Both the position numbers and the translations under genes were made by a program. Below, piece by piece: positions 4,116-63,998 of a stretch of 64,000 nt of DNA. The notes below the pieces were generated by a model, which did not search any database, had not been told where the DNA came from, and worked only from the letters and a program-made list of their open reading frames with translations. Each line of letters starts with the position of its first letter. The first letter of the stretch is position 1. This DNA comes from a virus: IMG/VR virus record IMGVR_UViG_3300032562_000005. The stretch is one strand, 5' to 3'.

Positions 4116-6014
4116 CTACTTTTCAGTAAAGTCAGCGTCTACGACATTGTCGTCATCGGCTGGCTTAGCTGACTCTTGTGGCTCAGCAGCAGGTTGTGCT
4201 GCTTGTGCCTTTGCTTCTTGAATAGCCTGCGAGGCTGTTATTAAAGCGGTTACTGCCTTTTGGATTTCGTCCCTATCAGTACCTTTGACTGCTTCTTCTA
4301 CAGCCTTGATAGCTGTGTTGATATCGTCAATTTGTGTACCGCTAAGGCTACTGCTAGTTTCATCTAGGTCCTTACGGATCTCGTGTACCATAGCATCAGC
4401 AGAGTTGCGAGCTTGGATGAGTTCAACTTGTTTCTTATCATCTTCCGCATTAGCTTCTGCTTCTTTAATCATCTTTTGAATTTCATCATCTGACAATCCT
4501 GAGTTTGCTTTAATAGTAATCTTGTTTTCTTTGCCTGTGGTTTTATCCTTGGCTTTAACACTTAAGATACCATTTGCGTCAATATCAAGCTCAACGTCAA
4601 TTTGTGGTTGACCTCGGCGTTGTGGCTGGATGCCTTCTAAACTAAACTCGCCTAAGAGTTTATTGTAAGAGCATAACTCGCGCTCGCCTTGATAAACTTT
4701 AATTGTAACTGCTGGTTGGTTATCTTCGGCAGTACTAAACACTTGATTAGCCTTAGTAGGAATCGTAGTGTTCTTTTTAATCAACTTAGTCATTACACCG
4801 CCCATAGTTTCAATGCCTAATGACAATGGGGTAACATCAAGTAACAATACGTCTGTACGGTCGCCGCCTAATACAGCACCTTGAATAGCCGCACCAGCCG
4901 CTACTGCTTCGTCTGGATTAACATCTTTGCGTGGTGCTTTACCAAACAGCTTCTCAACTGTTTCTTGTACTTTAGGCATACGAGTCATGCCACCAACAAG
5001 AATAACCTCGTCGATATCGCTGTTACTTACACCCGCATCAGACATGGCAGTCTTACATGGGCCTACGGAACGTTGAATCAATTCATCAACTAAACTTTCA
5101 AATTTAGCACGAGAGATGGTAACATTCAAATGCTTAGGACCACTTGCGTCTGCTGTAACATATGGTAAGTTAACAGTAGTAGACTGTGCTGAAGACAATT
5201 CAATCTTAGCTTTTTCTGCGGCATCTTTCAAACGCTGTAATGCTAACACATCACTTTTAAGGTCACATCCAGATTCTTTCTTAAACTCATCACAGAGGTA
5301 ATCCATAATGCGTTGGTCAAAGTCTTCGCCGCCCAAGAATGTATCGCCGTTAGTTGACAATACTTCAATCTGCTTGTCGCCATCCACATTGGCAATTTCG
5401 ATAATGGACACATCAAATGTACCACCACCTAAGTCATACACGGCAATTTTACGATCCTTAGTACTTGCTTTATCAACGCCATATGCTAGTGCGGCCGCTG
5501 TTGGCTCGTTGATAATGCGTAGAACTTCTAAGCCCGCAATTTTACCTGCGTCTTTGGTAGCTTGTCTTTGGCTGTCATTGAAGTATGCTGGTACAGTGAT
5601 AACGGCTTGTGTAACTGTCTCACCTAAATAGTCTTCGGCAGTTTTTTTCATCTTACGCAATACTTCAGCAGATACTTGTGGTGGTGCCAAATCTTGGCCA
5701 TTTGCTTGAATCCAAGCATCACCATTATCAGCTTCGATAATTTTGTAAGGCATCAAGTTGATGTCTTTTTGTACAGCTTCTTCTTTAAATTTACGACCAA
5801 TCAAACGCTTTGCAGCATAGATTGTGTTCGATGGGTTTGTAACTGATTGGCGTTTAGCTGTAGCACCAACTAATACTTCGTCGGCTGTATAGGCGACAAT
5901 ACTTGGTGTAGTTCTAGCACCTTCTGCGTTTTCAATTACTTTTGGAATGTTATTTTCGATTACGGAAACACAGGAATTTGTAGTTCCCAAATCTATGCCG
6001 ATGATTTTGCTCAT
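4116..6014 (-). CDS. dnaK: Chaperone DnaK (Hsp70)
   Basis: [33 protein letters not shown]-terminal VVDADFTE. Confidence 0.98.
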
Positions 6015-6084
6015 GTTGTTTTCTCCTTTAATTAAGCAAGTAACTTCTTACGAACCCAAACTACGGCATTCGTAGAAGTATTTA
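6015..6084 (-). promoter_or_regulatory. Late promoter (TAAATA 6079-6084) plus ROSE-like thermometer in dnaK leader
   Basis: mRNA: ACUUCUACGAA..UUCGUAAGAAGU hairpin then CUUGCUU-AAUUA-AAGGAG; same architecture as ibpA leader. Confidence 0.65.
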
Positions 6085-6126
6085 TGGTACTACAAAATCA
6101 TTATATACAAATATTATTCGGTTAAG

Positions 6127-6489
6127 TTAAGCATTTCTGATAACCAGTTTAGCTTTAATTTTAGTAGGGCTAAAATGTTTCTTTACTACCTTTTCTGCCG
6201 TTTTTGGATTAAACTTTTTACAGCTAAACACATCAATGTATGCCGTTCTATCTTGATCCATAAAGTGTCCAGTAATGTTACTAGTTTGTATTAGCTGAAC
6301 TAAACTGTATCCACTGTTTGGATGTCCATCGAGCAAATACTTAATTACTGGTTTGCCCACTGCTTCCATTTTAATTTGCTCTACCAAGTCTTTGATAAAC
6401 TCTTTTAATTTAGCTTTACTATTGATATTGTCATTCATGCCTTGGCAATCCAGCATTAGGTGGTAACCCCATGGTTTGATTTTTTTCAT
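6127..6489 (-). CDS. S-adenosylmethionine decarboxylase-family proenzyme (pyruvoyl)
   Basis: GYHLMLDC, GYSLVQLIQTSNITGHF (autocleavage region), AYIDVFSCK.F. Confidence 0.85.
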   Translation of the reverse strand: MKKIKPWGYHLMLDCQGMNDNINSKAKLKEFIKDLVEQIKMEAVGKPVIKYLLDGHPNSGYSLVQLIQTSNITGHFMDQDRTAYIDVFSCKKFNPKTAEKVVKKHFSPTKIKAKLVIRNA

Positions 6490-9833: not shown

Positions 9834-10042
9834 TTACTAACAGTAAGATTATAGTCTCGTTCAGCGTGTACTAATCGATTTTCTAAATTTGCTAATCTAC
9901 GCTCAACACGAATTTGCCTAGCAATTAATAATGCCACTGCTATAACCACACCAGTGAACATCAATCCCCAGCCAGCAACTAACCCATAGGTCCAAAACCA
10001 TAAATCATTAATGCCGCTAGTTAGTAGAGTTATTGGATTCAT
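9821..10042 (-). CDS. Small membrane protein
   Basis: One TM segment plus short coiled coil; overlaps neighbours in operon. Confidence 0.65.
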   Translation of the reverse strand: MNPITLLTSGINDLWFWTYGLVAGWGLMFTGVVIAVALLIARQIRVERRLANLENRLVHAERDYNLTVSKWQK

Positions 10043-10235
10043 TTAATTGCTTTCTTAGCTCTTTATTTTCTTCAACAAGTGTTTTTGTCAATTTTTTATA
10101 ATACGCAATATCTTCTTGTAATGTCTTGTTCTGTGATTCGAGATGTTCACCGGTGTTAGCTTGCTCTTTGGGTGTGGTTACTCTGCCGCACAGGTAGCCA
10201 GCTAATATAGCAATGACCCAAAGAATATCAGTCAT
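10017..10235 (-). CDS. Small membrane-anchored coiled-coil protein (start re-assigned to MTDILWV)
   Basis: ATG overlaps the stop of the upstream gene (ATGA). Confidence 0.6.
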   Translation of the reverse strand: MTDILWVIAILAGYLCGRVTTPKEQANTGEHLESQNKTLQEDIAYYKKLTKTLVEENKELRKQLNESNNSTN

Positions 10236-10426
10236 TCTGGTTTTCCGCCTGTACACGATCCGCCAGAGAACCAAAGTTCTTCAGCTTGTTCACGATACTG
10301 TGCCAAGTCGTATTCATCCTTCTTAGCTTTGTATTCTGATTCAGTAAGAGCGTGCCAGCCGCAACATTTACCTGTAGGGCTACGACCGCATCCACATTGT
10401 CCAATTGTTCCTGGCTTAGGTTGCAT
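10232..10426 (-). CDS. CDGSH-type 2Fe-2S domain protein (variant)
   Basis: CGCGRSPTGKCCGWH resembles C-x-C-x2-S...C-D-G-S-H. Confidence 0.65.
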   Translation of the reverse strand: MQPKPGTIGQCGCGRSPTGKCCGWHALTESEYKAKKDEYDLAQYREQAEELWFSGGSCTGGKPE

Positions 10427-10635
10427 TATTCTTCCTTTGGTAGCTCTGTCGTTTCTTTAACAAGAGCCAAAAGTTCGTCAACAGTCTTAACCATAATTTT
10501 AGCAGTCTTGTATTCCTCATCAGAATCGCGACCACCAACTTCAATCATAAAACCGTTATCGTACATATTAATTGTAAAATTTTCATTTACTATAGTAAGT
10601 TTATCGCCAACTTTTTGTATTTGTTTTTTTGCCAC
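10426..10635 (-). CDS. Hypothetical phage protein
   Basis: GTG start with SD; coupled to next gene. Confidence 0.65.
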   Translation of the reverse strand: MAKKQIQKVGDKLTIVNENFTINMYDNGFMIEVGGRDSDEEYKTAKIMVKTVDELLALVKETTELPKEE

Positions 10636-49060: not shown

Positions 49061-51328
49061 TTATCTAAGGAAGATGGAACTGACAGATTTCATGGTAGTT
49101 AAATTGGAATCTGCTTGAGTTTCGGTTGGTGCGTCGGTTTCTCTGATTCCTGCTAAGAACTTAATTCTTGCCATCATATCTTCGTCAGTGCCTTCGACTG
49201 GTTCTAATTTGCCAGAGTGTCCGTACGGGCCAGTTAACGCTGTATTTTCGTTAACTTCTTTGGCAGAATGTAACTTATCTTTAAGTGCTTTTAACTTTTG
49301 ACTTAACGGATCATTTAATCCCACACGACCGCCCGAGCGGACAATTTTTTCAATTTCATCTTGTACTTGTTTCATTTGGTCAGCAGTACTACTAGCGGTT
49401 TCGTCCACTTCGTCATTGTTGCCGCTAATCATATTGCTCAATTTATCGCCTAATGTATCACCGATATGTGCGCCTATCATTCCGCTACCTGGAATTTCTG
49501 GAGCAATTAATTCGCCGGCAATCAATCCCAATCCTTTACCAATAGCGCCTTCGTCGACGTCATAGTCTTTGGCTATATCATCATAAATTATTTGTAATAT
49601 TTTATCAATGTCGTCTTTTGGATGTAATCCAGTTTCGAATGTAATCTCGTCAATTTTATCATGAATTTGTTTACTTACAAATTTTTCTACATTAGTTTTT
49701 GGATTAGCATAGATATTGTAGATATCAACATTGTTGCGAGCAATATCTTGTAGTAAAATATCTACTTCGTTCATTGCGCCTTCTTTAACTAAACGATTAA
49801 CTGCCTTATGAATACCACGACGGCGATTGTTATCTTGCCGATCTTTTTCTGCGTCAAATTTTGGTTGACGTTCGCCATATGAAACGCCCATATCTACACC
49901 TTGGTCGAAGTTTTTCATAGCACGGTCAGAGCTTGCTCGCTTAACATAGCTACCTAATGTGTCTGGACTTAATTCGTCTAGCATATTAGGAGTAACTTCT
50001 GGTTGCTGTGTATTTGGTGGATCTTCTGTTTGTGTGTGTGGATCTTTAATGCGCTCTTGAACTGGTTCTTGTGAATCTGGGATTGGGTTCTTTAATTGTC
50101 CAATAACTTGTGCTATAGCTGGATTGCTTTTTAATTGTTCCAAACGAGAAAGAATAATTTCACGAGCGTCGGCATTGGCATCTTGTTCAGCCAATTCTTC
50201 TAAACGGTCAAACAATTCGTCATCGCCTAACAAGTCATATAATAGTTCTGTAGCATTAGTAGCATCAGGACCTACTGGTAATTCTTGACTAAGCAAGCTA
50301 ACTAGTTGAGCTTGTTTCTCTTTAGTATCCGGAACTGCCCAAGTACCTTCAAGAATAAGGTTTGCCCAATTTTCAAATATGTTAGCTTCTTTCATGCTTT
50401 GTTCCCGTTGTAATTTTGCCAATAATGGTAGTGCTTGCTCGATGCGTGAATCTATGTTTTGTTCCACAAACATATGACGCAAATCTTCGATAATAACATC
50501 TTCGTCACTTAATGCGGCTGGATCCCAACCTTCAAAATACTTTGCGTAACCATTTTTTGTACTTAAACTTTTTAGATTACTTTGTAATGTTTCGTAATAA
50601 TGTGTAGCTTGTTCTACTAAGTGCTGTGTTTCACCTTCAAAGATTTTACCTTGATTGGCACGACGGAAACGACTTAATAAATTCATTTCTTCAACAATAG
50701 TAGCAATATGTTGTCCGCGAATATCGTAAGGCTTACCACCTTGACGCACGTGTTCTACCATAGCACGACCAGCTGATAATTTTGTAAACGGCAATTTATA
50801 GCGTTCACCTTCGGCTGTCTCTACAAATAAAGATTCTACATAACGGAAGCGAGCATCATTCTCGCCAATAGCTCGTTTATGTTTAATCATTAGTCTAGCT
50901 TCAGTTTCTGCGCCATTCCATGATTGAGTTTTTGTGCCAGCCCAAGATTCAAATAAGCCTTCGCTAATTGCGGCTTGACCTTGCATACTGTATTTTAATT
51001 TGTTTAAATTCTGTAATGAGAAACTTAATAAATTTCTCTTGGCAAACATACGCAATTGATATAAAAAGTCAAACCAACCTTTTTTGTCATCGCCTTCCAT
51101 ACTTTTACCAATATTATCGCCAAAGTAAACATTTAGATTATTGTCTTCGGTAAGCATCACAACTACTGTGCCATAGTTTTGTCCTGATTCACCTTTGTAA
51201 TCAAAAGAAAATAAATCAGCTTGTTCTGGAGATGGGGCAGGTTTGCCCATACTATCTAATGACTGCGGGTCAAAATTCTTACTAATGAGTAAGTCGTTTA
51301 ATTTCTGGTTAGCGTTGTTTTCTGCCAT
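49061..51328 (-). CDS. Large head-associated protein with modular C-terminal half
   Basis: Follows terminase; late promoter; recurrent hydrophobic-x-E sites; MARIKFLAGI end motif. Confidence 0.65.
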   Translation of the reverse strand: MAENNANQKLNDLLISKNFDPQSLDSMGKPAPSPEQADLFSFDYKGESGQNYGTVVVMLTEDNNLNVYFGDNIGKSMEGDDKKGWFDFLYQLRMFAKRNLLSFSLQNLNKLKYSMQGQAAISEGLFESWAGTKTQSWNGAETEARLMIKHKRAIGENDARFRYVESLFVETAEGERYKLPFTKLSAGRAMVEHVRQGGKPYDIRGQHIATIVEEMNLLSRFRRANQGKIFEGETQHLVEQATHYYETLQSNLKSLSTKNGYAKYFEGWDPAALSDEDVIIEDLRHMFVEQNIDSRIEQALPLLAKLQREQSMKEANIFENWANLILEGTWAVPDTKEKQAQLVSLLSQELPVGPDATNATELLYDLLGDDELFDRLEELAEQDANADAREIILSRLEQLKSNPAIAQVIGQLKNPIPDSQEPVQERIKDPHTQTEDPPNTQQPEVTPNMLDELSPDTLGSYVKRASSDRAMKNFDQGVDMGVSYGERQPKFDAEKDRQDNNRRRGIHKAVNRLVKEGAMNEVDILLQDIARNNVDIYNIYANPKTNVEKFVSKQIHDKIDEITFETGLHPKDDIDKILQIIYDDIAKDYDVDEGAIGKGLGLIAGELIAPEIPGSGMIGAHIGDTLGDKLSNMISGNNDEVDETASSTADQMKQVQDEIEKIVRSGGRVGLNDPLSQKLKALKDKLHSAKEVNENTALTGPYGHSGKLEPVEGTDEDMMARIKFLAGIRETDAPTETQADSNLTTMKSVSSIFLR

Positions 51329-52955: not shown

Positions 52956-53780
52956 TTAATCGTCTGAAGCGTTAGCTCCGCATTTTTGGCGTTTCATTTG
53001 AGTTAATTTTCCAAAATCCACACTCCATTCTTTACCTGGGGCTAATTCAATATAACCTTGTGGTAAAGCATACTTAACTTGTGCGTCTGCCATGATAGTA
53101 GCAACAGGAACACGGAATTTAGTTAAGTCATTACCCAAGTTAGGGTATGGTGCTGTATGTGGGAAGCCCCAGCCGGCTACTTCTTTAGTTTGATTGTTGA
53201 TTACAATCTTGTAAAAGCCATGTGGTACAATAACGCCTTTACCAATAACTTTATCGCCTTGCCCATACAAACCACCCGCAATAACTGTGTACGACTGGTT
53301 GCGTTGTACAGCCCAACCACGAACACTAGTTTCTAATAATTTCCAAATACCACGGTTCAACGAGCCGGCTTGTGGGCTCATATTAGTCATTAAGAATGAT
53401 TCATATTCTACTTGTGGATCCCATGATAAATCACCATCTGGAGCCATGTGTCCTTTATCGTAACCTGTGCCAGCATAGTCGCCTGGAACAGCGCCATTTT
53501 GAACAAATTGATTTGGAGCAAATGCGTTAGTACGAGCGACACAACCTAATGCGTTTTGTGGCAATAATTCATACATAACAAATTCTGGTAACTTAGCTTG
53601 TGCGTCATAGCCTACTAGATACGCTTGTTGGCATAATGGCTGTATTGGTTTAGCACTTTGTGGGAAACCATATGGTGCGTGTGCTTGACATTGTGCTACT
53701 GGAAATGGGGCACGTTGTGTCCACGCAAATACTGTTGATGTTGCTAAGACTAATAATAGTCCTGTAAATAACTTCTTCAT
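52956..53780 (-). CDS. Secreted DNA/RNA non-specific endonuclease (NucA/EndoG family)
   Basis: Signal peptide VFA; GYDKGHMAP, SFLMTNMSPQ..LNRGIW..LE, VP.GFYK. Confidence 0.93.
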   Translation of the reverse strand: MKKLFTGLLLVLATSTVFAWTQRAPFPVAQCQAHAPYGFPQSAKPIQPLCQQAYLVGYDAQAKLPEFVMYELLPQNALGCVARTNAFAPNQFVQNGAVPGDYAGTGYDKGHMAPDGDLSWDPQVEYESFLMTNMSPQAGSLNRGIWKLLETSVRGWAVQRNQSYTVIAGGLYGQGDKVIGKGVIVPHGFYKIVINNQTKEVAGWGFPHTAPYPNLGNDLTKFRVPVATIMADAQVKYALPQGYIELAPGKEWSVDFGKLTQMKRQKCGANASDD

Positions 53781-53797: not shown

Positions 53798-54199
53798 TTA
53801 TTTTCTTTTATAACCAGCAAATCCTGTAACAGGACTTACTTTATCTATATCTGGCATTTCTTCACTAGCCATTGTGGCTATTTGTATAGCATCGTCGCCA
53901 GGTAATCCCATAGCTATTAACGCATCACGAATATATACTCCGGTATGCGGATCATAACTTACTACAAATTCATTTTCACCAAATACATTATCTTTTTCAA
54001 ATGGCGGTACACCATCTTTTTTACGCTGAGCAGCGCCTTTTGCCCCGGCAATAGCTACACCAAACCGATATTGTAAATATGGATCTTGATTTTTAAGTGC
54101 TGGAATTTTCCACGCACCTGGTAAAGCTAACGCAATATCTTGTTGTAAACTACCTGTTCGACCAAGAGCTACTTCTGTGATGAATTCTTTAGCTCTCAT
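53798..54199 (-). CDS. Putative internal head protein, paralog A
   Basis: MRAKEFITE leader; PY..YRF..A.AG; SPV.GFAGYKRK end. Confidence 0.7.
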   Translation of the reverse strand: MRAKEFITEVALGRTGSLQQDIALALPGAWKIPALKNQDPYLQYRFGVAIAGAKGAAQRKKDGVPPFEKDNVFGENEFVVSYDPHTGVYIRDALIAMGLPGDDAIQIATMASEEMPDIDKVSPVTGFAGYKRK

Positions 54200-54564
54200 T
54201 TTCTTTTATAACCTGCAAATCCTTTTACAGGACTTGTTTTGTGTACTGTACTAGGTTCTTCAGATTTAATAGTGCTAATCGGTGTGCTTTTTTCGCCCAT
54301 AGCCTTTGCTGTCGCATTTAAAATATCTGCGTCACCTTGACTGTAAGCTAGTGTAGATAATTTTTGTCCAATAGGACCCAACTTAGCTAGCGGTGGATGC
54401 GGATTATCTTTGCCACCGCATCCAGCAGCCGCTACAATAAAACGCCACATAGCATAAGGATTAGAGTTATCTAAGCCGTCATAACGCTCGGCGCCGGCCA
54501 TAGGCATTAGTTGCTCATCTGAAAATTTTTCATGAGCTTCGGCTATGAACTCTTTAGCTCGCAT
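54196..54564 (-). CDS. Putative internal head protein, paralog B
   Basis: MRAKEFIAE leader; PY..WRF..A.AG; SPV.GFAGYKRK end. Confidence 0.7.
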   Translation of the reverse strand: MRAKEFIAEAHEKFSDEQLMPMAGAERYDGLDNSNPYAMWRFIVAAAGCGGKDNPHPPLAKLGPIGQKLSTLAYSQGDADILNATAKAMGEKSTPISTIKSEEPSTVHKTSPVKGFAGYKRK

Positions 54565-55113: not shown

Positions 55114-57651
55114 TTATTTTACAATCTTAGCGAATGCTTTGTACAAATTCAAAAAGCTACTAGCTTCAGAAACTTGACGCTCATCTTGACTTGCTAATAC
55201 AGGAATAGTAGACTGTCCAGTTGACTTAGGCCCATTTAATCCGCCACTATATTGTAATGCATCATCATCATATTCTTGATTAGAAGGATAATCTGGACTG
55301 TTTTGTGTAACAGGAGCATCTGCTTCGGCAATTTCTTCTTCATCGCTAGTATCAGTAATAGAAGCTGTAGGATCGCTAGCAGCAGGAGCGGCAGCAGGAG
55401 CAGAATTTAATTTGTCATCTACATAATCGCCAATTTTATCGCCAGCATATCCGCCAGCTACAGCACCTAATGGGCCAGCTACTGAACCTAAAGCGGCTCC
55501 AGCAATAGCACCCTTAACGCCTTCTTCCATATCATTCATCTCATCACATTGGCATGGGACGCCACCACAAGTACCGCAAGCGCCATCGTCATGTGAGTGA
55601 CCTTCTTCGCTTGATTGAATACCCATTGCGGCTAATAACTCTTTGATACGATGTACATCAGCACCTGTGGCTGTAATTGTAATCGCTTCTTCGTCACCAT
55701 CTTCTGCGTGTTCAACTACTTGTTGTTTAACTTGAACTGATTCACTAATCATAGCTTCGATATCACGATTCCATGAATCGTAAATGCCGCCGCCAAATTT
55801 CATGCCGCCAGATTTAGCAGCTTTTGGCGCAGAAGTTGCTACGCTACCAGAAGTTGTTGTTTCATCAACTTTCTCTTCTTTTTTAAATTTCTTCTTACCG
55901 CCTTCTTCGTCTTTACCAAGACGCCCAGCGATAACATCACCCTTAGTTACTTTGTCATAAGGTTTAGCATTGTTGGCTAAATTGCCGTCGCCCTTACCTT
56001 CTTCAGTCTTTTTAACTTTTTTAGGTAACTTACTAATGTCTTTACCTTTGTCGGCTTTGTTAAATTCTTTGCCTACAGACTGTTTGATTCCAACTTTTTT
56101 AGCAAATTTAGGATTGTGTGCTACACCAGCCATCATGTGTGCTTGTGCTTGGCTTTTTGATTTTTCAGCAATCATTTGTCCACATTCAGAACAAACATGA
56201 TCACCTTCTTCACGAATGGAACCTTTAGACATTAATTTACTTTTGCCAGTAGGTCCACGGGAACCTGTAGCACCTTTAGTACCAGCTGGGCGGCCACGAC
56301 CACGCTTAACTGCTGATCCGCTATCATCACTAGCATCTGGCTCATCAAATGTTTCTGGCTTGCGTGTGTACACAGTACCAGTTGATGTTTTACGCTTATC
56401 AAACTTGCCTGTGCCTTTTTCTGCTTCGCGCTGTTTCAACCAAGCATCCATGTCGTCAAAACCTTCTTCAACAGCGCCATCGCCTGTTAAATTATTGCCA
56501 ATTGCGCCACCAATAGCAGCGCCCACTGGCCCACCTAGTGCGCCACCAGCTAATGTACCAGCCGCTTGGCCAGCGATGCCTTCATCAGTGATACCAGCTG
56601 CTTTAAAGAAACGAGCTTGGTCAAATCGTGGATTAGCTAACTTAAATGCTGACGCATGGTGTTGCGCTAATTCTTTACGCTTATTCATATCTTCGATATG
56701 CTTGAGTGTATCAGCAATAGCTTGGAAATGTTTACGACTTACTGCTTCGTCGAGTTCGCTTGTATCTGTATACTCTTCGCCGCCAACTTTAAATTTGCCA
56801 CCTTTAGGTGTTGATTTAAGTTTGCCAGTAAATGCGTTGCCTTCAAATTCCATGCCGTTGTGTGCGTCTGGCTTGCCAGTGCCTTTATTGTATGAAGTTG
56901 CTACAGCATCTTCACGAGCTTGTTCTTTGTCGTGTGGAGCTAATTTACGATTTAAATAATCCATAATATCTTCTTCACTATGGTCAGCTTCGTAATAATC
57001 ACGCTTGCCACGCAAACGATCCATCTTACCTGGTACTGGAACATTTCCCGGAATACCTTTTGATGGAGTTGGATTATCACATTCCATTTCACTGCCGCCA
57101 TCTTCTTTGGCTACATTCTTAGCAAACTGTGCCATGTGGCGTAAGTGTGCGTCTTTACTATGTGTTGCTTTACTAATCTTACCTTTAGGAATCTTTTCAC
57201 CTTGTGGCACATGGAGAGCTTTATGTAAGTCGCCTTTTGTGCTTGGCTTAGTAGCTTTTTGAATCCACTTTTCTTTTTTCTCTTCTAAACTTCCTGATCC
57301 AGAAAAGTTTGCGCCGCCTGTGCCATCTTCCTTGGTCATACGAGCTAAACCTTTTTCGCGGCGAGCGGCGGACATAGCAGACATTTCCTTATCTTTAGGA
57401 CTTGGTGCTGGATTATTTTTATTACGATTGTAAATGTTTACTTCTGCTTTTGCTTTTTTAGCATAACTATCTTTTGTAGATTGGCTAATTTCGTTTACTT
57501 GGCCTTCCATTAATGCTGTCAAATCTTGACGCAATGCTTGCTCAAGTGTTTGACGAGCAGGAGTTTTAGGAGCTTCTTTACTCTCTGCTAATTTTTTCTG
57601 TTCAGCGCCAATGCCGTTTAGTTTTTTGTTAAGGTCGTAAAAAAAGCTCAT
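55114..57651 (-). CDS. Modular head polyprotein-like protein (845 aa)
   Basis: String of basic, Gly-zipper, AT-hook and Cys modules separated by x-x-E sites. Confidence 0.7.
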   Translation of the reverse strand: MSFFYDLNKKLNGIGAEQKKLAESKEAPKTPARQTLEQALRQDLTALMEGQVNEISQSTKDSYAKKAKAEVNIYNRNKNNPAPSPKDKEMSAMSAARREKGLARMTKEDGTGGANFSGSGSLEEKKEKWIQKATKPSTKGDLHKALHVPQGEKIPKGKISKATHSKDAHLRHMAQFAKNVAKEDGGSEMECDNPTPSKGIPGNVPVPGKMDRLRGKRDYYEADHSEEDIMDYLNRKLAPHDKEQAREDAVATSYNKGTGKPDAHNGMEFEGNAFTGKLKSTPKGGKFKVGGEEYTDTSELDEAVSRKHFQAIADTLKHIEDMNKRKELAQHHASAFKLANPRFDQARFFKAAGITDEGIAGQAAGTLAGGALGGPVGAAIGGAIGNNLTGDGAVEEGFDDMDAWLKQREAEKGTGKFDKRKTSTGTVYTRKPETFDEPDASDDSGSAVKRGRGRPAGTKGATGSRGPTGKSKLMSKGSIREEGDHVCSECGQMIAEKSKSQAQAHMMAGVAHNPKFAKKVGIKQSVGKEFNKADKGKDISKLPKKVKKTEEGKGDGNLANNAKPYDKVTKGDVIAGRLGKDEEGGKKKFKKEEKVDETTTSGSVATSAPKAAKSGGMKFGGGIYDSWNRDIEAMISESVQVKQQVVEHAEDGDEEAITITATGADVHRIKELLAAMGIQSSEEGHSHDDGACGTCGGVPCQCDEMNDMEEGVKGAIAGAALGSVAGPLGAVAGGYAGDKIGDYVDDKLNSAPAAAPAASDPTASITDTSDEEEIAEADAPVTQNSPDYPSNQEYDDDALQYSGGLNGPKSTGQSTIPVLASQDERQVSEASSFLNLYKAFAKIVK

Positions 57652-58268
57652 TTGTAGTTTCCTGATGGTTGTGCGCCAGTTGCTGGCTTGCGTGGACGCT
57701 TTTCTGCGTGTGTCATTGGAGAGTCATCACCTTGTGGTAACTCATTTGTTGTTTCAGCAGGCTTAGGACTTCCGCCAGCAATAGTAAAGTTGCTACGATA
57801 AGCATTTTTTAATACAGCATGGTCAAATGGATCAGCTGAATAATCTTTCTTCAATGCTTTTTGTTCTGCGTTGTCAGCAGGATAATCAGTATCGTTTAAT
57901 AATGATTCAGGTTGGTCTTCAACTTGCTTATTGATAAAGTCAACGCTGTCATCAAATACCGATGTTTGCATAATAATTTTATTTTCATCAAACCCAAGTA
58001 GTCGAGCAATTTGTTTAATTTGCGGTTCGATTGCTGGGTAGCGTAACTTAACATCAAAGCTAGTAACTTTTTGATTTTCTTGTGCTGGAAAATCGGCTGG
58101 TTTAGCTTGAATTGGAGTTGACTTATCTGCGCCAATTGACAATGGATCAAATTGGTCAAGTTTGCTTTTAAGTTTTGTGATAAATCCTGAAGGCAAATCA
58201 CCAACTACTTTGATACGATAGTTATATGTGCGCTCGGATTCTGCTAAGTAATCTTTAAAATTTTTCAT
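57648..58268 (-). CDS. Putative head protein
   Basis: MKNFKDYLAE leader; TAAATA at 58286-58291. Confidence 0.65.
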   Translation of the reverse strand: MKNFKDYLAESERTYNYRIKVVGDLPSGFITKLKSKLDQFDPLSIGADKSTPIQAKPADFPAQENQKVTSFDVKLRYPAIEPQIKQIARLLGFDENKIIMQTSVFDDSVDFINKQVEDQPESLLNDTDYPADNAEQKALKKDYSADPFDHAVLKNAYRSNFTIAGGSPKPAETTNELPQGDDSPMTHAEKRPRKPATGAQPSGNYK

Positions 58269-58293
58269 GATTGTTTCCTATATTATATTTATA

Positions 58294-58791
58294 CTAATTG
58301 TCTTTTTGTGCTCTGTCGCTAAGTAAGCGTTCCAGCAAATCATTGCGAGTTAATACCTGTCCTTCGGCCGTAGGAATGCTGGTTAAATCCCCGGATTTTT
58401 TGGCGGCGTCTTGATCTAACTTTAACTTTTTAAGTTGCAAGTCAATCATTTTTAATTTTTTATTCAGTTTAGTAGTTTTCGCTGTTAGTGCGTGTCCCAG
58501 CATATTCCCAGCCACAGCAAACAATTCTGCGGCAAATCTACTGTCTACATTCATGCCCAAATCGGATAAATCTTGATAGCTTTGTTTGGCTAATTCTGCT
58601 ATTTCGTCTAGTTCTTTATCACTTGCTTCCAAATCACGAATAGCAGGTAATGCTTCGTCAATTTTATCTATAGTATCATCAATTTCTATGATAGCTGTGC
58701 GTGTCTCTTCTGGAGTTAGCGTTTCGCTAATAGAAGGAGCCATATTCTCTTCATCAGTAAATCCAAACAATTCTTCAAGTTTCTTAGTAAT
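58294..58791 (-). CDS. Probable terminase small subunit (gp16-like), ATT start
   Basis: AAGGAG 7 nt before ATT-ACT-AAG-AAA-CTT-GAA-GAA; helical; [10 protein letters not shown]; TRNDLL. Confidence 0.55.
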
Positions 58792-59392
58792 TTTGAGTCT
58801 CCTTTTTACATTCTTTGTGCCAGCGGGCTAAATTACCTTTGTTTGTAATAGTTCCGCATCGAGGGCAACAAACTTTTTTCTGTAATTTTGAGATTGATAT
58901 TGCTAATTCTTCAGGATTATTTTTCAAATATTCTTTTCGTGTCTTGCTCTGTTGATCTCTTAATTTAGGATCTGCCCATATTTTTGTATTTGTTTCTTTT
59001 AATAATTCACGGGTAGATATTTTTACTGTTTTATCGCGAGTTTTCCAGGCTTCGATATAACCAGCATTTGATTGTTTTGGTTTGCGACCGTTAGGTTGTG
59101 CTACGCCTTTGCGTTGTTGCGAGCGGTTTACTAATTGTTCTTGCGAGAATTTATACCCAGCTGTACCATCACCGCCGTCTGTCATATTGCGTAAAATGCC
59201 AGTGCCCAAATCTTTGCGTCCGTACCAGCTAATAAGACGGCGTTCAATAGCACAAGCACCTAAATCTGTTAAATTTTTTTCTACAATAACAATTCTATGC
59301 TCATCTGTAGGAACTTTAACATTGTGTTCCTTAGGAGTAAGTGTATCTTTGCGCAAGTAAGCATAAACATAGTAGGTTAAATCAGAATTCAT
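58784..59392 (-). mobile_element. GIY-YIG-like homing endonuclease, probably inactivated by in-frame deletion
   Basis: YYVYAYLRK...[25 protein letters not shown] but no YIGKG..R segment; CPRCG..RWH tail. Confidence 0.72.
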
Positions 59393-62150: not shown

Positions 62151-63998
62151 TTAAGCAGCAGCCTGCGCCGCAATCGCTCCAGTGTTTTCGATACGCAATG
62201 GAATATAGATGAATTCCACAGCTTTTACTGGCTCAATAGCAATATCAACCCATAACTGATTTTGATCGATTGTAGTTGGTGTATTGTTTGTGTTATCACA
62301 TACAACCAAGTAATCGTAAATACCGCGTTTAGCAACCAAGTCAATCATTAAACTTACGATTGAGTTACTGATTTCTGTACGGGTAATTTGATCATTTGGT
62401 TCAAACAAATATTGCTTACCAATTGTTTCAAGTCTAGTACGGATAAAGCATACTAAACGAGCTACGTTGATACGGTCTAATGCTGTAGCTGTAGCTTGTA
62501 ATGTCTTATTACCAAAGTTAGTAATACCAACACCTGGGATATAAGTGATTGGATTAATTTGGTTTTCATACAATACATCGCGCAATGATTGTCCAACGCC
62601 TAATGTTTCAAATACACCAGTAATACCATTTAAGTAACCTAACTGGAATGCGTTATCAACTAAACCACGACGTGTTCCAGCTGGAGCTAACCAAGGATAA
62701 GCAATTTCATCGCTACGAATAATTGTGCGAATCATCATGTGACTTGGATAAGTTACACAATAGTTTCCGCTCAAATCAGTTGTCTGACAGCTTGGATAGA
62801 ATGTGCCACCGTAAGCATCGCCAGCTGCTAAATTGCCATCGCCTGTTGGTAAACCTAAACCATTATTATCAGTTGCCCATGTAACAATATCTGCTGGAGC
62901 AAGGCGTAATGGGGTATCAATAATGCTAAATGCCACATTATTAATTTCATTATTCAATGCTACCATGTTAGGAGCCAATTCTGGATATCCAGGAACAGCG
63001 ATTAAGTTGTAAGAATTTTGTTCTTCACGAATCTGTGTATTAGTATCAATAGCACTCTTCATAGCTTTAACAATAATTTCACGCTGAGCTTGACGACCCA
63101 TGTATGGTGAACCATCTGGACGATTTCCTGTAGCAGTTAACCATGTATTTGTTACAGTTTGTACTGACCAATAAGTTGGACTTGTGTCTGGCTCTTGATT
63201 TGAGTTATTTTGAATACAAGCATACACAATATTATCATACTGGACATATTGACCAATTGTATAAGATGTTGTAGAAACCCAGTCGTATGTTGGGAAAGTA
63301 TTATTGTTAAAATAATTTGATTGATATGTTTTAACATTAAATCCTGAACGACGAGTATTCCATAACAACATTCCTGTTGGATATAATAATGCGTCTGGAG
63401 CATCTAGATCCAAGTAATTACTTGTTAATAAACTTTGGATTGTTGGTAAAGCAGCAGATACAGGATCTGTTGTACCATTTGGAGCCCAACGAGCATCTTG
63501 GAATAAAATACCATTAGATTGTGTAGCATCTGTGTTATCAATTTGTGCCCATTGATCTACACCGTTAACATTTTGCCAACGAGATAAAATTGGATAATCT
63601 TCTAAATCAGAAGTATTAACCCATAAATCGCCATATACTAATGGTGATGTATTGTCAGTTTGTGTTAATGGTGGAGTAGCACTAATGATTGGACCAGTAG
63701 CATTGGTTTGAGATAAATCATAACCACGGCTGTCAGATGTACAATTTTGATATCCTGTCCATACACCATTGTTTTGAATCATGATATCTACTTGTGTAGC
63801 ATCACTATAATACCAATATGTGCCATCAGTTGGATCTTGATCTGGAGCCACATCAGATGCTGTGTATGTAAATGTTGTGCTACCTACCCAGTTACTTAAA
63901 ACTAAACCAGCGGCAGCACCGTTAACATAACGCTGACGGCATAAGAAAGTACTAGTTGTAAAGCCAGCATCAGTAACAACAGTTCCGCCATTTAAATC
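62151..63998 (-). CDS. Tail sheath protein (gp18-like), 5' end outside window
   Basis: PGYP, FYP, PWLAPAGTRRG, RD.LY...INPI, FGNKT, LDRINVARL, FEPND..TR, P.KAVEFI; frame open to window edge. Confidence 0.95.
   Translation of the reverse strand, partial: DLNGGTVVTDAGFTTSTFLCRQRYVNGAAAGLVLSNWVGSTTFTYTASDVAPDQDPTDGTYWYYSDATQVDIMIQNNGVWTGYQNCTSDSRGYDLSQTNATGPIISATPPLTQTDNTSPLVYGDLWVNTSDLEDYPILSRWQNVNGVDQWAQIDNTDATQSNGILFQDARWAPNGTTDPVSAALPTIQSLLTSNYLDLDAPDALLYPTGMLLWNTRRSGFNVKTYQSNYFNNNTFPTYDWVSTTSYTIGQYVQYDNIVYACIQNNSNQEPDTSPTYWSVQTVTNTWLTATGNRPDGSPYMGRQAQREIIVKAMKSAIDTNTQIREEQNSYNLIAVPGYPELAPNMVALNNEINNVAFSIIDTPLRLAPADIVTWATDNNGLGLPTGDGNLAAGDAYGGTFYPSCQTTDLSGNYCVTYPSHMMIRTIIRSDEIAYPWLAPAGTRRGLVDNAFQLGYLNGITGVFETLGVGQSLRDVLYENQINPITYIPGVGITNFGNKTLQATATALDRINVARLVCFIRTRLETIGKQYLFEPNDQITRTEISNSIVSLMIDLVAKRGIYDYLVVCDNTNNTPTTIDQNQLWVDIAIEPVKAVEFIYIPLRIENTGAIAAQAAA

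Follow-up and report, generated by a model that had tools for sequence, protein, structure and literature searches.

A modular 845-residue protein of an uncultured giant T4-related phage as a candidate precursor of multi-site-processed head cargo

A 64,000-nucleotide stretch of the IMG/VR virus record IMGVR_UViG_3300032562_000005 (this whole stretch is called the window hereafter) comes from an uncultured giant T4-related myophage of the PA5oct/Rak2 type. At positions 55114-57651 its minus strand carries a single open reading frame (ORF) coding for a protein of 845 amino acids (aa), referred to here as P0001, which on balance we consider to be a virion cargo precursor that is packaged and then cut at several of its [LIVM]-x-E sites. 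Read on the plus strand, the same interval contains stop codons throughout and no ORF. The ATG of P0001 overlaps the stop codon of an upstream 206-aa gene in an ATGA junction, and the start codon is confirmed by the invariance of the N-terminus among homologs. Alanine, lysine, glycine, glutamate, aspartate and serine are abundant in the protein, which contains 68 Glu residues. A Pfam scan of P0001 detected no enzymatic domain, and a scan of P0001 together with eight long homologs returned LysM, PG_binding_1, DUF3008 and Gly-zipper matches only, with no enzymatic or anti-defence domain. The segments of the protein are listed below in N- to C-terminal order; P1 denotes the Glu of a candidate site, P3 the residue two positions before it, P1' the residue after it, and a slash the candidate cut. 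Predicted local distance difference test (pLDDT) values come from the structural model described further on.

57583-57651, minus strand: N-terminal leader MxFFYDLNKKL (aa 1-23), a predicted helix, ending at L-A-E23 (P3 is I, L or V in homologs)
57328-57582, minus strand: basic helical segment (aa 24-108), net charge +6, ending at E108
57280-57327, minus strand: invariant linker DGTGG..GSLEE (aa 109-124), whose site L-E-E124 opens the hypervariable cassette region
57079-57279, minus strand: KWIQKA three-helix basic module (aa 125-191, the KWIQKA unit proper being aa 128-183), pLDDT 87-91
56746-56844, minus strand: EGNAFTG..KFKVGG beta-hairpin module (aa 270-302), ending at L-D-E302
56581-56745, minus strand: helical-hairpin module VSRKHFQAIA..NPRFD (aa 303-357, helical unit aa 304-351), ending at E357, pLDDT ~90
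56464-56580, minus strand: glycine zipper 1 segment (aa 358-396, zipper aa 358-382), with borders E357/G and V-E-E396/G
56209-56463, minus strand: GFDDMDAWL..TGTVYTRKPE module with AT-hook (aa 397-481), net charge +6, ending at I-R-E481
56164-56208, minus strand: short acidic CSEC peptide (aa 482-496) between I-R-E481 and I-A-E496
55861-56163, minus strand: DUF3008-like module with Lys-rich tail (aa 497-597), net charge +12, ending at the invariant V-D-E597/T
55741-55860, minus strand: conserved TTTSGSVAT..GIYDSWNR segment (aa 598-637), ending at the invariant I/L-S-E637
55324-55740, minus strand: acidic part (aa 638-776), net charge -22, ending at I-A-E776
55165-55323, minus strand: most conserved block of the family (aa 777-829), ADAPV..PDYPTNQE..LQYSGGLNGPKSTGQ, predicted to be disordered, ending at M/V-S-E829
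55117-55164, minus strand: conserved C-terminal basic amphipathic helix SFLNLYKAFAKI (aa 830-845)

The leader of P0001 itself reads MSFFYDLNKKL..LAE23, with F4, Y5, L7, N8 and L11 invariant among homologs. Behind it, aa 51-105 are kept in only ~38% of homologs, and the closing E108 stands in a T-K-E context in P0001 and in L/V-x-E contexts in homologs. The P3 of E357 is L, C, M or T across the family; P0001 itself has Thr at P3 of both E108 and E357. The AT-hook KRGRGRP (aa 449-455, within KRGRGRPAG, aa 449-457) fits an R-G-R-P core with basic flanks; among 55 homologs G453, R454 and P455 are invariant, while R450, G451 and R452 are kept in at least 90%. The DUF3008-like unit KSKSQAQAHMMAG occupies aa 497-548, of which aa 498-546 match phrog_16759 (E=1e-15). 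Against PF11450 (DUF3008) P0001 is not listed at E<=0.01 and homologs score 20-22 bits for a cut-off of 24, some of them carrying a precomputed PF11450 match; a literature search returned no papers on DUF3008. The acidic part contains a small alpha/beta module (aa 639-675), a Cys knuckle CGTCGGVPCQC (aa 692-702) in which C692, C695, C700 and C702 are invariant, a second glycine zipper that not all homologs have (aa 711-739, zipper aa 711-729), and a linker of variable sequence. Zipper 2 matches phrog_6056, 'internal virion protein', at E=3e-4; the Gly-zipper_Omp family matches P0001 at E=0.005 with 17 bits (cut-off 25), and the GxxxG/A pattern is visible twice.

An AlphaFold2 model built from a 55-sequence alignment has a mean pLDDT of 52, with 510 of 845 residues below 50 and about 27% helix. 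The units predicted with confidence are aa 140-183, aa 281-351, aa 623-675, helices within aa 1-100 and the C-terminal helix (aa 830-844); the C-terminal helix SFLNLYKAFAKI is a candidate docking propeptide. The model portrays P0001 as beads on a string, a series of micro-domains unlike the long helix of a tape measure. Most Foldseek matches of this low-confidence model in BFVD were meaningless, the exception being proteins of 51-86 aa from uncultured phages that match single modules, and an ESM Atlas search gave no usable match.

Relatives of P0001 are numerous. Among 8000 word-sharing candidates that were scored, 762 matched at E<=1e-3, and a search of 1.84 billion representatives gave 1980, of which 85 were below 1e-30. 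All are metagenomic, many lie on contigs of 100-375 kb, and the proteins are ~480 to 1461 aa long. BLAST aligns them with P0001 largely in the same order, with sizeable insertions and deletions. The backbone runs in the order leader, DGTGG linker, cassettes, helical unit, glycine zipper, GFDDMD module, AT-hook, DUF3008-like unit, TTTSG segment, alpha/beta unit, Cys knuckle, glycine zipper (not always present) and C-terminal block. Directly after DGTGG..GSLEE124, homologs that are 45-70% identical to P0001 overall hold different micro-modules: the slot occupied by KWIQKA in P0001 holds, in many of them, the YSAKKAAAGKDIGKPGKNF module or other cassettes instead, such as KYGVCIVGH.., KHGMKYHRG.., DFAKKW.., the EGNxFxG hairpin, a CxxCxCxPCxC knuckle, FTPQDIKAALDY.. 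(twice in one protein) and SALQAYLGNKKYG.., each bordered by [LIVM]-x-E. A crude signature count gave 32 architectures in 37 full-length proteins. Module turnover in the family is therefore established, and because the backbone order is kept while the cassettes vary, it proceeds by gain, loss and substitution and not by free shuffling.

Modules of P0001 are also found outside the family. KWIQKA occurs at the C-terminus of 718-aa proteins and in proteins of 120-344 aa from other phages. A second family, with the leader MYMKNLF or MSTFANKF, has the EGNAFTG hairpin before KWIQKA, the opposite of the order in P0001, and one of its contigs also encodes a gp20-type portal and a Peptidase_S77 protease. 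Members of this second family measure 246-344 aa (L057, positions 9869-10609, and L035, positions 5212-6246) and were found in a T4-like phage contig; they have V-K-E / I-P-E junctions and a Pro/Ala linker, and their helical C-terminal domain is conserved. In Stenotrophomonas phage BUCT555 the DUF3008-like unit stands alone as a 52-aa gene, located between the capsid gene and a 687-aa gene that follows the large terminase. In 201phi2-1 it is a gene of 87 aa, and an IMG/VR contig has it as a 64-aa ORF. It was the only module to match in a tblastn search of P0001. An earlier note, made by a model from the letters alone, had described the protein as a head polyprotein in which unrelated peptide modules are separated by prohead-protease sites. 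Every module it listed, namely the zippers, the AT-hook, the basic units, the helical unit, CSEC and CGTCGGVPCQC, is present in P0001. Its expectation that the segments, searched one by one, would recur elsewhere was borne out in other proteins, as free genes and, in the one other family, in a different order. Its idea of an exchangeable library holds as far as gain, loss and substitution are concerned; the largely colinear backbone means that shuffling was overstated.

The candidate sites were examined in the alignment of 55 sequences, where 35 Glu residues of P0001 are conserved, that is, kept in at least 60% of them. An L, I, V or M at position -2 is conserved along with 12 of these 35 (E23, E108, E124, E302, E357, E396, E481, E496, E597, E637, E776 and E829), for 4-7 of 35 at other offsets, and D, K, R or G occupies position -2 of conserved Glu in 14-24%. 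In a pooled logo of 288 unique nine-residue contexts, P3 is L (31%), I (25%), V (20%) or M (10%), 86% in all, P1 is E and P1' is mostly G, S or A, while P2 (D, E, S or A) and P4-P6 vary. Profile hidden Markov models (HMMs) of seven modules, with the site residues excluded, were run on 307 proteins (50%-identity representatives plus IMG/VR proteins): in 55-98% of unique contexts [LIVM]-x-E lies within the eight residues that lead up to the module, for a background of 13% and for 17% with the control module EGNAFTG, a test that gauges retention of the motif and not independent placement of the borders, which were taken from P0001's own sites. The DUF3008-like unit, for example, is preceded by CGQAIQE/K, GEEMVDE/K, HMEPVAE/K, EDEEINE/K or AKKVVDE/R, the other upstream residues varying freely, and the KWIQ module by VAE, LNE, VTE, VKE or IPE across four architectures. 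Judged from these alignments, the junctions exceed chance across homologs, though not in P0001 alone.

The 12 conserved sites have the make-up of gp21-type substrates, a P1 Glu plus a P3 determinant proper to the clade (L/I in T4); an Asp at P1 prevents processing in T4. Proteases of the gp21 family cut after Glu with such a P3 determinant, A-x-E in SPN3US and S/A/G-x-E in phiKZ (PMC5694885). PA5oct encodes a protease of this family (Peptidase_S77), and three relatives reached through a gene from the right of the window carry both an S77 protease and a P0001-family ORF: G015 (157 kb, ORF of 1461 aa), G016 (344 kb, 99% complete, 560 aa) and G017 (342 kb, 95% complete, 768 aa). The two genes are 37-60 kb apart in these genomes, and their co-occurrence is established. 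The gp23-family capsid protein was taken as a positive control for protease specificity. Its first 46 residues contain four [LIV]-x-E motifs in the relatives (ELLE/G, ALLE/G, VILE/N and YLKE/N) and in PA5oct (LFE, LTE, VME and LVE), and the last of them directly precedes an NASAGST block, whose aligned counterpart in T4 gp23, NIAAGQT, follows closely on the known cut LTE65/A. These capsid proteins (L179-L182, from G013 and G015-G017) are 398-405 aa long, and their propeptide has 46 residues for 65 in the T4 gp23 homolog. The link to a T4 gp21-type protease made in the earlier note agrees with the S77 gene and the T4-like capsid propeptide motifs of the clade (G015-G017 and PA5oct). The same note had counted about twenty x-x-E junctions, too many since x-x-E describes any of the 68 Glu: the 12 conserved with an aliphatic P3 stand, whereas LME, VNE, YYE and MEE are not conserved sites. 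Its placing of the sites at module borders agrees with the conservation of the motif at module starts, less so with the indel hot spots considered below.

The gene order on the minus strand is tail sheath, tail tube, a tube-like gene, a 119-aa gene, a TnsA-like 'head closure' gene, a homing-endonuclease-like gene, a 158-aa gene, the 206-aa gene, P0001, genes of 177, 122 and 133 aa, a secreted nuclease, the large terminase, a 755-aa structural protein, a gp32-like single-stranded DNA-binding protein, a homing endonuclease, UvsX and UvsY. A megablast search with 14 kb against cultured phages gave no match. The large terminase is 52% identical to that of the Pseudomonas jumbo phage PA5oct, in which the order is the same: sheath gp289, tube gp287/gp286, structural gp282, structural gp281, terminase gp280 and structural gp279. 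In PA5oct, gp282, gp281 and gp279 are annotated as found in virions by electrospray ionisation tandem mass spectrometry (ESI-MS/MS), and P0001 sits in the slot of gp281, a protein that is not discussed in the PA5oct paper. Metagenomic relatives keep the same neighbourhood around the P0001-family gene, and their fragments imply genomes of ~350 kb according to CheckV. The neighbouring features are the following.

57648-58268, minus strand: 206-aa gene, counterpart of the PA5oct virion protein gp282, matching phrog_14802 'virion structural protein'
58286-58293, minus strand: TATAAATA, a T4 late-promoter-like motif 17 nt upstream of the 206-aa gene, a weak call, with only 2 matches in the window
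53798-54564, minus strand: two tandem small paralogs of 122 and 133 aa, starting MRAKEFIAE and MRAKEFITE, with a conserved C-terminus SPVxGFxGYKRK
49061-51328, minus strand: 755-aa protein in the slot of the PA5oct virion protein gp279

The capsid-targeting sequence (CTS) of T4 is MKTYQEFIAE, cut after its last Glu (PMC8442874), and the starts of the 122-aa and 133-aa paralogs conform to it. Relatives hold two or three copies of these MRAxEF[IVL]xE genes; among nine paralogs from four genomes, with 24-61% overall identity, M1, R2, A3, E5, F6 and E9 are invariant. The two proteins are candidate injected internal proteins with a T4-like CTS, and, as far as sequence can tell, the CTS-like leaders next door are the best local sign of a head-cargo cluster. 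The start of the 206-aa protein, MKNFKDYLAE, was considered as CTS-like and dropped, its Glu not being kept in PA5oct gp282 (MKSFRDYYDAS). The C-terminal part of the 755-aa protein echoes P0001 with DVDE/GAIGKGLGLIAG (a glycine zipper after a site), EVDE/TASST and RIKFLAGI, so that the two proteins share VDE/G-glycine-zipper and VDE/T junctions.

Other genes of the region deserve mention. The nuclease (52956-53780, minus strand; phrog_14168) has a signal-peptide-like N-terminus, its counterpart in relatives matches Endonuclease_NS, and its position between the CTS-like genes and the large terminase is conserved in relatives. The 202-aa homing-endonuclease-like gene (58784-59392, minus strand) lies between the TnsA-like and 158-aa genes, an interval in which no such gene is called in the relatives L002, L004 and L005; this lineage may have gained it as a mobile insertion. 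The tail sheath gene (62151-63998, minus strand) runs past the window edge; its product is 1224 aa in full on other contigs, and a CBM_5_12-like carbohydrate-binding insert in it scores 25.4 bits, just below the 26.2-bit cut-off. To the right of the window, some 10-32 kb beyond the sheath gene, L081 and L084 contain giant genes of 2003, 1449, 390, 2221 and 1634 aa without any Pfam match, next to gp15-like and gp13-like neck genes; these are presumably fibre or baseplate proteins.

Taken with the positional analogy to PA5oct virion proteins, which would fit packaging in the head, these observations lead us to infer that P0001 is probably packaged and cut, that some of its products may be retained and ejected with the DNA, and that the peptides may have activities of their own, possibly including an anti-defence role. 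The precursor would be made late and built into the prohead core, perhaps docking through the conserved terminal helices and the conserved acidic C-terminal third; the helices at the two ends, a short one up to LAE23 and a basic one beyond VSE829, look like docking peptides that can be removed, and the disordered yet conserved acidic block aa 777-829 may bind a structural partner. A prohead protease of the gp21 family (Peptidase_S77) would then cut after Glu at ~10-12 conserved [L/I/V/M]-x-E sites. Its products would include basic pieces of 6-11 kDa (aa 24-108, +6; aa 303-357, +3; aa 397-481, +6, with the AT-hook; aa 497-597, +12, DUF3008-like), a ~20 kDa piece (aa 125-302), a 39-aa glycine-zipper peptide and the acidic pieces 638-776 (-22) and 777-829. 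The basic pieces may stay on the packaged DNA as T4 internal proteins do and leave with it at infection, while the glycine-zipper and peptidoglycan-binding cassettes suggest an action on the envelope. The slot after GSLEE124 would be a hypervariable site at which lineages swap modules.

Such a protein would work most like the internal proteins and Alt of T4, and like the inner-body or ejection proteins that are processed at multiple sites in phages of the phiKZ type. T4 IPI, IPII, IPIII and Alt are small basic cargo of the prohead core, freed after [L/I]-x-E and ejected with the DNA (PMC9026906, PMC9958956), the internal proteins and Alt being trimmed (PMC9958956), Alt at both ends (PMC9026906). 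Their loci are hyperplastic between related phages, which recalls the variability of P0001. However, T4 has a separate gene and one cut for each cargo, whereas P0001 combines ~10 modules and ~12 candidate cuts in one precursor, its hypervariability lies inside the polypeptide, it has no sequence homology to any T4 internal protein and its leader is not a CTS. In phiKZ, 201phi2-1 and SPN3US, inner-body and ejection proteins are head-internal, and a gp21-related protease cuts them after Glu, in many cases more than once; paralogs among them share N-terminal propeptides (PMC5694885). An inner-body-like bubblegram signal was reported for the Rak2-type phages 121Q and phAPEC6 (PMC7247149). Cuts in the inner-body and ejection proteins follow S/A/G-x-E or A-x-E and strip propeptides from large folded proteins, whereas P0001 has an aliphatic P3 and its products would be micro-domains. 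The only sequence link is the 87-aa DUF3008-like gene of 201phi2-1.

The polyvalent proteins of phages and conjugative elements (Iyer et al. 2017, PMC5512222) also bring many unrelated modules together in one polypeptide, and co-delivery with DNA and proteolytic processing have been proposed for them. Enzymatic or anti-defence domains are typical of them, and many include a peptidase; P0001 has no enzymatic Pfam domain and would rely on the prohead protease. The positional analogue PA5oct gp281 (498 aa) lies in the same slot as P0001, flanked by the gp282 homolog on one side and the large terminase on the other; like P0001 it is compositionally biased, has LAG[IV]..E motifs and finishes in a basic C-terminus. 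It differs in being very acidic and in having no basic modules, AT-hook or Cys knuckle.

Several results weigh against processed head cargo. In P0001 alone the motif is not significantly enriched, with 15 [LIVM]-x-E observed for 10.2 expected (p=0.07) and 9 [LI]-x-E for 5.6 expected (p=0.10). Of 13 indel hot spots, 6 fall within 6 aa of a site, which is significant in comparison with random positions (p=0.016) and not with random Glu (p=0.16). The borders used in the HMM test were, as stated, those of P0001. No Peptidase_S77 was found in the window or over the next ~32 kb on its right, where the neck genes were reached and the head module was not; among 10 IMG/VR fragments with close homologs or module proteins only G006 has one, and the closest relatives, themselves genome fragments, lack it as well. 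P0001 adjoins tail sheath and tube genes, its leader lacks the T4-type CTS found in the 122-aa and 133-aa paralogs, and neither BLASTP nor HHalign detects similarity to gp281, which makes the latter a positional analogue only. Finally, the LysM and PG_binding_1 inserts of some homologs would also fit a tail or periplasm-facing protein.

Among other explanations, P0001 could be a modular virion protein that remains uncleaved and acts in one piece, for instance as a flexible protein that condenses DNA or contacts the envelope. [LIVM]-x-E would then be a convention of linkers or of structure, or would serve in binding. Disordered proteins often have linkers rich in Glu, the indel hot spots follow Glu in general, and the motif also occurs inside the folded alpha/beta module (VVE647 and IKE671). 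We nevertheless regard this as unlikely, given that the pair formed by an aliphatic P3 and a P1 Glu is conserved across unrelated contexts while P2 and P4-P6 vary, and that the motif matches the one kept in the capsid propeptide of the clade and in the CTS-like leaders next door.

A scaffold-like protein of the prohead core would be cut at the same sites and its fragments expelled, as happens with T4 gp22, gp67 and gp68, which are multi-site gp21 substrates, a feature that P0001 with its many protease-type sites may share. These T4 core proteins are degraded to small peptides (PMC9958956), and the additional propeptide sites of SPN3US are believed to aid in ridding the capsid of fragments (PMC5694885). 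The acidic, highly conserved C-terminal third and the terminal helices could bind the shell or the core. However, the T4 proteins are short, acidic and helical and their fragments mostly leave the head, whereas P0001 is long, mostly disordered and made up largely of basic micro-domains; these, with the near-invariant AT-hook, suggest that it binds DNA and is retained. Cassettes that vary so strongly, and inserts of LysM, would be odd in an assembly role, and the PA5oct positional analogue is found in mature virions. In contrast to T4 core genes, the P0001-family gene lies 37-60 kb from the protease and capsid genes in relatives, where a ~1.4 kb gene-sized gap between these two occupies the position of T4 gene 22. 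A scaffold thus seems improbable.

A role in the tail, as tape measure or lumen protein, with the gene lying downstream of those for sheath and tube and its product the first to enter the periplasm, would suit the gene order (sheath, tube, small genes, long gene), the conserved termini around a variable middle, and the glycine zippers and LysM/PG_binding_1 inserts of some homologs. Tape measures are long helices, and we rejected this very improbable reading on fold and length variation: only ~27% of P0001 is predicted helix and 60% of its residues have a pLDDT below 50, and homologs span 480-1461 aa, including 812, 941 and 1202 aa alongside tube genes of 212-219 aa in the same gene order. The next genes, moreover, are CTS-like small proteins and the large terminase and not baseplate genes, and PA5oct gp281, in the same slot, has only 498 aa and is very acidic. 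That P0001 is a late protein outside the virion, such as an intracellular DNA-organising or host-directed one, is likewise highly improbable: its AT-hook and basic modules could act in the cell, but both neighbours match mass-spectrometry-verified PA5oct virion proteins, the gene of one of them overlapping the start of P0001 at the ATGA junction, PHROG families named 'virion structural' and 'internal virion' are matched, and the protease-type motif pattern argues otherwise.

Head cargo cut at several sites thus remains our preferred reading of P0001. A stronger version of it, possible but doubtful in our judgement, is that the injected cargo is a true polyprotein, a set of hypervariable DNA-binding, peptidoglycan-binding and membrane-inserting micro-proteins that the capsid protease converts to ~10 peptides, each cassette bringing its own site. 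If so, new cargo would be gained by in-frame insertion of a site-plus-module unit, and one gene would stand in for what in T4 is a hyperplastic locus of internal proteins, by a polyprotein strategy otherwise typical of RNA viruses.

The new element here is the polyprotein layout with site-bounded, exchangeable micro-cassettes. The family is abundant in metagenomes, numbering hundreds to thousands in giant phages of freshwater type. Should the cuts prove real, the virion would deliver the KWIQKA, YSAKK and DUF3008-like units, the glycine zippers and the Cys knuckle as effectors, and the combination of conserved [LIVM]-x-E at module starts with an S77 protease would provide a rule for recognising head cargo in uncultured giant phages. 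Tailed phages could then use polyprotein logic for injected cargo, with short protease motifs serving as portable 'cassette borders' for module exchange.

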